In this document: piece by piece, positions 24,085-24,456 of the stretch
How positions within the stretch are numbered: position 1 is the stretch's first letter
How the letters are laid out: every line of letters begins with the position of its first letter
Assembly (NCBI GenBank): GCA_964352435.1
Contig: CAYGSQ010000002.1
Span: forward strand, 2,052 to 26,507
Direction of reading: 5' to 3'
From: an uncultured Gammaproteobacteria bacterium
GTDB taxonomy: Bacteria > Pseudomonadota > Gammaproteobacteria > Steroidobacterales > JBCCMA01
Length of the DNA: 24,456 bases
Program-made: the position numbers and the translations under genes
Notes under the pieces: generated by a model
What the model was told of the DNA's origin: nothing
Databases searched by the model: none
Seen by the model: the letters and a program-made list of their open reading frames with translations, nothing else

Positions 24085-24456
24085 TTACTGCTTACGAGCA
24101 GCCGAGACCATGCCTTCACCAATCGACTTGAGCGCCGTCGACGTCGTGTTCATGATAATGGAGAACTGCTGCGACGCGACCTGGAAGTCGGTGGCCGTCG
24201 AAGGATCTTCGCTGTCCACTTTGTCCGCCAGATCGGCCATGTTGTGCGCCGTTTCATCCAGTTTCTTGCCCATCACTTCGGCAATTGCGTACAACCAGCC
24301 TGGTGCGCCGGTTGAGTTACCGCGACTGCCACCGCGGGAGTTGGCCACCGTTGAGCCGTCTTCTGTGTCGTTCGCGCTGTCAATGATCGACTGCACCAAC
24401 GATGAAAAAACGTCTTCCATTTCGCTGCGGAAATCGTCCGCGGCGCGCTGCATGTC
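24085..24456 (-). CDS. 5'-truncated helical protein with a C-terminal T3SS needle (SctF)-like helical hairpin
   Basis: Frame is open to the window edge (GAC before the annotated ATG 24453). Own terminator downstream. C-terminus WLYAIAEVMGKKLDE...SEDPSTATDFQVASQQFSIIMNTTSTALKSIGEGMVSAARKQ; the needle resemblance is my inference. Confidence 0.6.
   Translation of the reverse strand, partial: DMQRAADDFRSEMEDVFSSLVQSIIDSANDTEDGSTVANSRGGSRGNSTGAPGWLYAIAEVMGKKLDETAHNMADLADKVDSEDPSTATDFQVASQQFSIIMNTTSTALKSIGEGMVSAARKQ

Follow-up and report, generated by a model that had tools for sequence, protein, structure and literature searches.

[quoted passage not shown] It is a conserved component of this non-flagellar T3SS lineage, and its own genome carries the system. 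The standard picture of an injectisome has a single needle subunit, with the tip and the translocators as separate proteins. In the environmental lineage described here (Luteimonas, Dyella, Lysobacter, Hahella, Sphingomonas, Caulobacter, and marine Gammaproteobacteria), there are consistently two needle-family paralogs and no recognisable translocon. One paralog comes with a glycine-rich module, as a fusion or as a separate protein, and with Sec-exported DUF6683 proteins. The window protein is a testable candidate for the distal end of these uncharacterised T3SSs, and their carriers include cultured, non-pathogenic strains, such as Dyella sp. OK004, Dyella koreensis, Sphingomonas sp. 1P06PA, and Caulobacter sp. 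Root656. Also, DUF6683 and the MIIA/DUF1521 cassette gain a T3SS context. The finding is a moderate one and not radical, as databases already tag part of the family as needle-like. In the literature that we could search, we found no paper on the long form of the protein, the two-paralog rule, or the link to DUF6683.

The window spans positions 2052-26507 of its contig (C2), and its right edge is the end of that contig, which belongs to a 611-contig MAG that is 74% complete. The ORF call and the alignment of orthologs place the 3' end of the needle-family gene at 24085..24456 (-), with 123 codons and a stop codon; the 5' end of the reading frame is open and about 90 codons are absent. The eight closest homologs are 54-87% identical to the window protein over its 122 residues and are 209-214 amino acids long; the orthologs as a set have 209-216 amino acids and are 68-87% identical over the part in the window. 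Given the lengths of these orthologs and the contig end at the window's edge, the window protein is the C-terminal 123 residues of a protein of about 213 amino acids. The first-pass annotation, which had proposed a protein of at least 123 amino acids with an extra domain, is amended as to the length. The ATG at 24453, which might be taken for the start codon, is the second codon of the fragment and encodes the family's invariant internal Met95.

The fragment begins with the last helix of the N-terminal domain (residues 1-28, 24373..24456 (-), from the ortholog alignment and an AlphaFold model). Next is a flexible linker rich in glycine, serine, and arginine (residues 29-53, 24298..24372 (-), from the alignment and low pLDDT), whose length differs among the orthologs. 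The rest is an SctF-type helix-turn-helix hairpin (residues 54-123, 24088..24297 (-), from PF09392, TIGR02105, a profile search of the PDB, and AlphaFold2), with the turn V-D-S-E-D-P (SEDP) at about 24202-24213 (-). An intrinsic terminator with a 14-bp stem, a TTCG loop, and a T-run (24063-24032 (-)) lies directly 3' of the gene. This layout of helix, G/S-rich linker, helix-SEDP-helix, and UUCG-loop terminator had been read by eye from the sequence, and the ORF, alignment, and terminator analyses bear it out. By comparison with orthologs, the part of the N-terminal domain that lies off the contig comprises an uncharged, glycine-rich segment of about 60 amino acids and further helices. It is a single gene that ends in a strong terminator of its own. 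In sister genomes, two overlapping genes lie directly upstream of it (112 and 237 amino acids; L009:8770-9818 (+) and L018:12240-12911 (-)). Neither matched a family or was found in the window's own incomplete assembly, where they would sit just past the contig end. A 40%-identical homolog of the 237-amino-acid protein adjoins the T3SS of Dyella.

The resemblance of the hairpin to SctF/YscF, first noticed by hand, goes beyond chance, judging from sub-threshold matches to two family profiles, the ranking of PDB matches, and superposition of the model. The window fragment matches PF09392 with E = 4.3e-6 (27.2 bits, profile positions 1-61 of 71), and full-length orthologs reach 29.2-29.3 bits, just under the gathering cut-off of 29.4 bits. 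The match to TIGR02105 (E = 1.2e-6, 28.8 bits) is well under that family's cut-off of 41.7 bits. When a profile of 52 hairpin sequences was compared to the whole PDB, the top match was BsaL (E = 0.005), followed by a needle fusion (E = 0.037), PrgI (E = 0.099), and then MxiH, and these needle alignments span the turn and the C-terminal helix. The broader 52-sequence profile was needed to reach the PDB needle proteins; a narrower family profile reached YscF only at E = 0.16. AlphaFold with 83 family sequences gave a hairpin with pLDDT of about 90 (helices 145-170 and 176-213, with the turn at S-E-D-P), while residues 132-138, which are equivalent to the linker, had pLDDT below 50. (With only 9 close sequences the pLDDT was 42, and we used the rerun with 83 sequences instead.) In a structural comparison of the hairpin with 48,161 chains (VIA), ranks 1 and 2 were T3SS needle subunits. 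The hairpin superposes on a Shigella needle subunit (6rwy_L) with Z = 9.2 and an rmsd of 1.3 Å over 70 residues, and it matches an NAIP-bound needle subunit (8fvu_U) with Z = 9.1. As unrelated helical hairpins also reach Z of 8-9 in VIA, this ranking is not decisive by itself. A Foldseek search of the model against the PDB, which discriminates helical hairpins poorly, gave no significant match.

Like SctF needle subunits (YscF, PrgI, MxiH, BsaL, and EscF), the window protein has a helix-turn-helix of about 70 residues with an (S/K)-x-D-P turn, and its host genome has a non-flagellar T3SS. The C-terminal helix motif of its family (Q..S.EF....N...T.IK) aligns with needle proteins, and needle subunits are its best structural matches. 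The hairpin of about 70 residues with a proline-containing turn that is expected of the needle family is seen both in the AlphaFold2 model and in the superposition on 6rwy_L. In contrast, needle subunits have 70-90 amino acids, and their genes lie between sctD and sctI/sctJ in the core operon, whereas the window protein has 213, with an N-terminal extension of about 140, and is encoded elsewhere. It also differs in that it scores below the curated cut-offs and that its family ends in a conserved ARKQ. Taking sequence and structure together with the genomic context, we view it as well supported that the last 70 or so residues are a diverged, distant member of the SctF needle hairpin family. The EspA/SseB filament family (PF03433) was absent from Pfam scans at E up to 1-10. 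The first-pass annotation had also offered an inner-rod subunit, but an assignment to SctI (PF17001, or HrpB2, PF09487) fails for the window protein: the inner-rod slot, directly upstream of sctJ, and a weak full-length match to PF17001 (E = 0.017) belong to another protein, of 141 amino acids, that we describe below.

Could the needle likeness be a generic coiled-coil resemblance, in a gene that is unrelated to type III secretion? The scores under the curated cut-offs of PF09392 and TIGR02105, the lack of significance with Foldseek, and the many unrelated hairpins at Z of about 8 are what we would expect if so. However, needle proteins head the list of sequence matches in the PDB, and their alignments take in both the turn and the C-terminal helix. 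Furthermore, the gene is found within or close to T3SS clusters in all long contigs that have T3SS genes within reach, it co-occurs perfectly with SctD in a sample of 151 genomes, and it has a paralog in the sctF slot. These data on context effectively refute the coiled-coil explanation, which we consider highly implausible.

A search of the window's own genome for non-flagellar T3SS genes found SctN, J, D, C, V, Q, R, S, T, and U, on contigs C481, C317, C283, and C382. These genes are 40-95% identical to those of a sister genome (G001, a gammaproteobacterial MAG), where one 113-kb contig carries both the ortholog and, 10-30 kb upstream of it, a complete injectisome. The gene order in G001 is sctV, sctC, sctD, a gene for a 113-amino-acid protein, a gene for the SctI-like protein of 141 amino acids, sctJ, a 234-amino-acid gene, and sctN, followed by SctO-like and SctP/HpaP genes. 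A divergent set contains a FliO-like gene, a histidine kinase, a LuxR-type regulator, sctQ, sctR, sctS, sctT, and sctU. The SctV, SctC, and SctD of this genome score above the curated cut-offs of NCBIfam. The two findings that would have spoken against the first-pass annotation, a lack of profile or structure similarity to SctF/SctI and a genome devoid of non-flagellar T3SS genes, are both contradicted. Three sister genomes have the long gene and the T3SS on a single contig, with the apparatus upstream at distances given as 10-24 kb or, in one comparison, 18-24 kb. So, the expectation that apparatus genes would lie beyond the right edge of the window is supported as to direction by the sister genomes; they are not immediately adjacent. 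An apparent split of sctV in the window's genome, as in a pseudogene, was rejected because the break is a run of N in contig C317. The FliO-like gene (PF04347) lies inside the T3SS cluster, beside sctV (L014:9880-10323 (-) in a sister genome, and contig C283 in the window's own genome). This fits a preprint that reports FliO in the non-flagellar T3SSs of Caulobacterales, Sphingomonadales, and Xanthomonadales (PMC12248157).

The same association holds across a wider range of genomes. In the sample of 151 genomes from the window's order, the family is present in 6 genomes, precisely those that have a SctD homolog, and a genus-mate that is 94% complete has neither. (As related genomes are not independent, the six amount to about three lineages.) An exhaustive profile search gave 452 cluster representatives at 50% identity, most of them 195-250 amino acids long with full-length matches. 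Members from Sphingomonas, Sphingorhabdus, Parasphingorhabdus, Caulobacter, and Brevundimonas are annotated as hypothetical, and those from Dyella are named "EscF/YscF/HrpA family needle major subunit" by PGAP. Every long contig with T3SS genes within reach has them in a cluster with this architecture, and the long gene belongs to the cluster or neighbours it, either at its edge or 10-24 kb off.

The 113-amino-acid protein of the T3SS cluster is a paralog of the window protein. Its profile aligns to the hairpin of the window protein with an hhalign probability of 91.6% (E = 8e-7), and both have the same RKQ terminus. In G001 its gene sits between sctD and the SctI-like gene, and the window's own genome has a copy on C317. 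Sphingomonas, Dyella, and Caulobacter have the same arrangement of sctD, the short hairpin gene, the SctI-like gene, and sctJ. An order of sctD, needle, sctI, and sctJ is that of prgH-I-J-K and mxiG-H-I-J. The short forms from three phylogenetically distant hosts form one clade, apart from the long forms, with support of 100/97, which implies that the duplication into short and long forms is old. (From this tree of hairpins we use only the clade of cluster-borne short forms; short and long labels taken from database entries were uninformative, as many "short" entries are gene fragments.) A search of species-representative genomes for the short form gave 275 loci, of which the best 80 are mainly from Luteimonas, Dyella, Lysobacter, Hahella, Coralloluteibacterium, Frateuria, and Rudaea. 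For all 61 of the full-size short-form loci, the contig also carries a second hairpin gene: within 10 kb for 40, at 10-22 kb for 17, and as previously established for the remaining 4. Both paralogs are also present at the Sphingomonas and Caulobacter loci, which we examined separately.

Because a separate paralog occupies the needle slot, the window protein is a second needle-family subunit and is probably not the core needle. The leading alternative is that the long protein acts as the functional SctF, as the main subunit of the needle or pilus, and that the 113-amino-acid paralog is a minor axial part, such as an adaptor between inner rod and needle. Judged by sequence, the long form looks like the more canonical SctF, and so it could be the true major needle. 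Indeed, it is the sole match to PF09392 in a sister genome, and its hairpin profile matches BsaL, PrgI, and MxiH, while the profile of the short form matched no needle protein in the PDB. Other points in its favour are that abundant filament subunits are typically encoded, like the long form, by single genes that end in strong terminators, that the system has a switch protein of the SctP/HpaP type, and that PGAP calls the Dyella ortholog a major needle subunit. On the other hand, in every cluster that we inspected, the short form is in the exact position of prgI and mxiH, between sctD and the sctI-like gene. The short form is also much better conserved: identity between lineages is 49-68% for the short hairpin but 33-45% for the hairpin of the long form and 23-38% for its N-terminal domain. 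Faster change in the long form fits an exposed, distal part. Finally, an external domain of 140 amino acids per subunit, with N-terminal domains that are split off or swapped (see below), fits an accessory subunit better. Overall, it seems rather unlikely to us that the long protein is the major needle.

Long forms are acidic (median pI of 4.7) and contain about 12% glycine, and 73 of 83 members have no cysteine. The first 60 or so residues carry almost no charge and show moderate hydrophobicity, which in most members is under that of a classical transmembrane helix. We found no Sec signal at this N-terminus, and the ESM Atlas gave no match for the N-terminal domain. A glycine zipper was considered and rejected: the motif was present in 62 of 83 real N-termini and in 56 of 83 shuffled ones.

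The N-terminal domain and the hairpin can also be separated. In Luteimonas, a glycine-rich N-terminal domain of about 75 amino acids and a second hairpin of 108 amino acids are separate genes in one block. In Luteimonas terrae this block (L049:16300-18021 (+)) encodes the glycine-rich protein, two small acidic proteins, and the hairpin, followed by DUF6683 genes; there are two DUF6683-like genes in the block. The free-standing N-terminal domain has a weak match to Gly-zipper_Omp. In the second T3SS of another genome (G047), a protein of 345 amino acids (L034:1498-2532 (-)) joins an unrelated N-terminal domain to the same hairpin, by way of a long linker of glycine, alanine, and serine, and ends in GRKS. 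From these split and swapped N-terminal domains, the hairpin behaves as an assembly module that takes different N-terminal modules. A glycine-, alanine-, and aspartate-rich ORF of 185 amino acids in sister genomes of genus g1 (L033:1483-2040 (-), with equivalents at L031 and L032) resembles the long form in its N-terminal domain alone. In those genomes it lies far from the T3SS, and it was not found in the window's own assembly.

The next gene in the window (23244..23981 (-)) encodes a DUF6683 protein with a Sec signal peptide (PF20388, E = 9e-17). In many of the contexts that we inspected, DUF6683 adjoins the second hairpin (genus g1, Dyella, Sphingomonas, Caulobacter, Luteimonas, and two metagenome contigs), and BLAST places it within 2.5 kb of the second hairpin at 18 of 40 loci. 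It is often present in arrays, sometimes of 2-4 copies, with four tandem copies in Caulobacter (further loci are L041:10780-14539, L043:10733-13151, and L049:18539-20009). In the sample from the window's order, DUF6683 was found in 5 of 151 genomes, all of them among the six that carry the T3SS. All of the copies beside the second hairpin that we inspected have Sec signal peptides, and the mature protein starts with Q-D-F or Q-D-Y in most of them. Given these signals, the DUF6683 proteins are not T3SS substrates. A search of the ESM Atlas with the DUF6683 neighbour returned only DUF6683 itself, and a literature search found no paper on DUF6683.

We propose a division of labour in which the short paralog forms the core needle and the long form, as an exported axial subunit, assembles distally into a filament or tip, with its N-terminal module exposed. 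This account, which we favour somewhat, is based on synteny, conservation, modularity, and the missing translocon, and we also count the stand-alone gene with its terminator in its favour. The 113-amino-acid paralog would build the core needle. The window protein, with an uncharged N-terminus that lacks a Sec signal, would be exported by the T3SS. Its needle-type hairpin would then dock onto or into the needle lattice, to form a distal extension of the filament or a tip. The N-terminal part of about 140 amino acids (the glycine-rich hydrophobic segment and a helical domain, on a flexible linker) would be displayed outside or at the tip, and it could contact or enter a target membrane. A predicted complex of two short and two long hairpins had a score of 0.09, which speaks neither for nor against the model. 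The Sec-exported DUF6683 neighbour is left unexplained by this model.

Another possibility is that the long protein acts mainly on membranes, as a secreted effector or translocator, and that its hairpin only docks it at the tip, with DUF6683 as its periplasmic partner or as self-protection. The glycine-rich N-terminal module would form pores in the target membrane. The uncharged, moderately hydrophobic first 60 or so residues fit this idea, as do the acidic, glycine-rich (about 12%), and mostly cysteine-free composition (73 of 83) and the weak Gly-zipper_Omp match of the free-standing domain in Luteimonas. Also, we found no translocators of the SseC/YopB type or the NolX type in 5 carrier genomes (a weak negative result, as the NolX control matched nowhere). 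The adjacent Sec-exported DUF6683, sometimes in arrays of 2-4, resembles the layout of effectors with their immunity proteins, and LysM hydrolases that lack Sec signals adjoin the T3SS in three lineages. However, the glycine-zipper motif is no commoner than in shuffled N-termini (62 versus 56 of 83), most members are less hydrophobic than a classical transmembrane helix, and a binding or neutralising role for DUF6683 is putative. We think it improbable that the protein is chiefly an effector, and this explanation overlaps with a role at the tip instead of excluding it. A more speculative version is that a single modular protein replaces the tip and both translocators: the hairpin would cap the needle, the glycine-rich module, which is fused in the window's lineage and free-standing in Luteimonas, would enter the target membrane, and DUF6683 would be the partner or the protection in the periplasm. 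We doubt this scheme.

The proposed distal subunit has partial parallels in known systems. EspA and SseB are filament proteins that extend the EscF and SsaG needles. If our proposal is correct, then the window protein would resemble them as a T3SS substrate of about 200 amino acids whose gene is apart from that of the short needle protein and which polymerises on the needle via terminal helices. Unlike EspA and SseB, it has no match to PF03433, and its hairpin is contiguous, at the C-terminus, and homologous to the needle paralog of the same system. Also, EspA systems have translocators of the EspD/EspB type, and we found none here.

The axial proteins of the flagellum (rod, hook, junction, and filament) are another parallel, as they are paralogous subunits that share an assembly module and stack in order on one export channel. 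The T3SS described here even keeps a homolog of FliO (PMC12248157). In contrast to the flagellum, it is non-flagellar and has a secretin, SctD, and SctJ, and the hairpin is of the needle type and not like the D0 domain of flagellin.

Finally, the long form shares with harpins and Hrp pilus proteins (HrpZ, HrpN, HrpA) an acidic, glycine-rich, and cysteine-free composition and, presumably, secretion by the T3SS, and the PGAP family name groups HrpA with needle proteins. However, we saw no sequence match to a harpin family, and harpins lack the needle hairpin. The carriers of harpins are plant pathogens, while the hosts here are free-living marine and soil bacteria.

As an extension of the speculative single-protein scheme, this T3SS lineage may target other microbes rather than animals or plants. 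The FliO gene is one reason to think so, as it links these systems to the T3SS* that is involved in predation by Myxococcus, and the LysM hydrolases are the other. These large peptidoglycan hydrolases are found beside the T3SS in three distant lineages (L013:14023-15594 (-), L016:14186-15361 (-), and L041:15867-17597 (-)), with lysozyme and M23 domains, NlpC/P60 and lysozyme domains, or a VgrG3-like C-terminal domain. Their N-termini are rich in serine, threonine, and glutamine and lack a Sec signal. The T3SS could thus export these hydrolases as substrates, which would hint at a bacterial target.

The MIIA/DUF1521 proteins of the window are plausible candidates for substrates as well, as the first-pass annotation had suggested. 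One of them (22399..23136 (-); PF07481, E = 7.5e-29) is encoded on the same strand as the needle-family gene. A second paralog (20711..21451 (+); PF07481, E = 1e-13) is convergent with the gene for an M48 peptidase that has a lipoprotein-type signal (21473..22363 (-); PF01435, E = 4.9e-40), and synteny shows that the M48 gene and this second paralog are part of a cassette that is conserved in the sister genomes. Both MIIA/DUF1521 proteins end in hydrophobic, glycine-rich segments and have no Sec signal. In the sample of 151 genomes, MIIA/DUF1521 was found in 5, all of which are among the six carriers of the T3SS. Elsewhere, NopE1 and NopE2 are secreted by a T3SS, and VIC_001052 is encoded in the T3SS cluster of Vibrio coralliilyticus (PMC6506597). 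There is also a MIIA protein of 377 amino acids near the T3SS of Dyella (L040:3148-4281).
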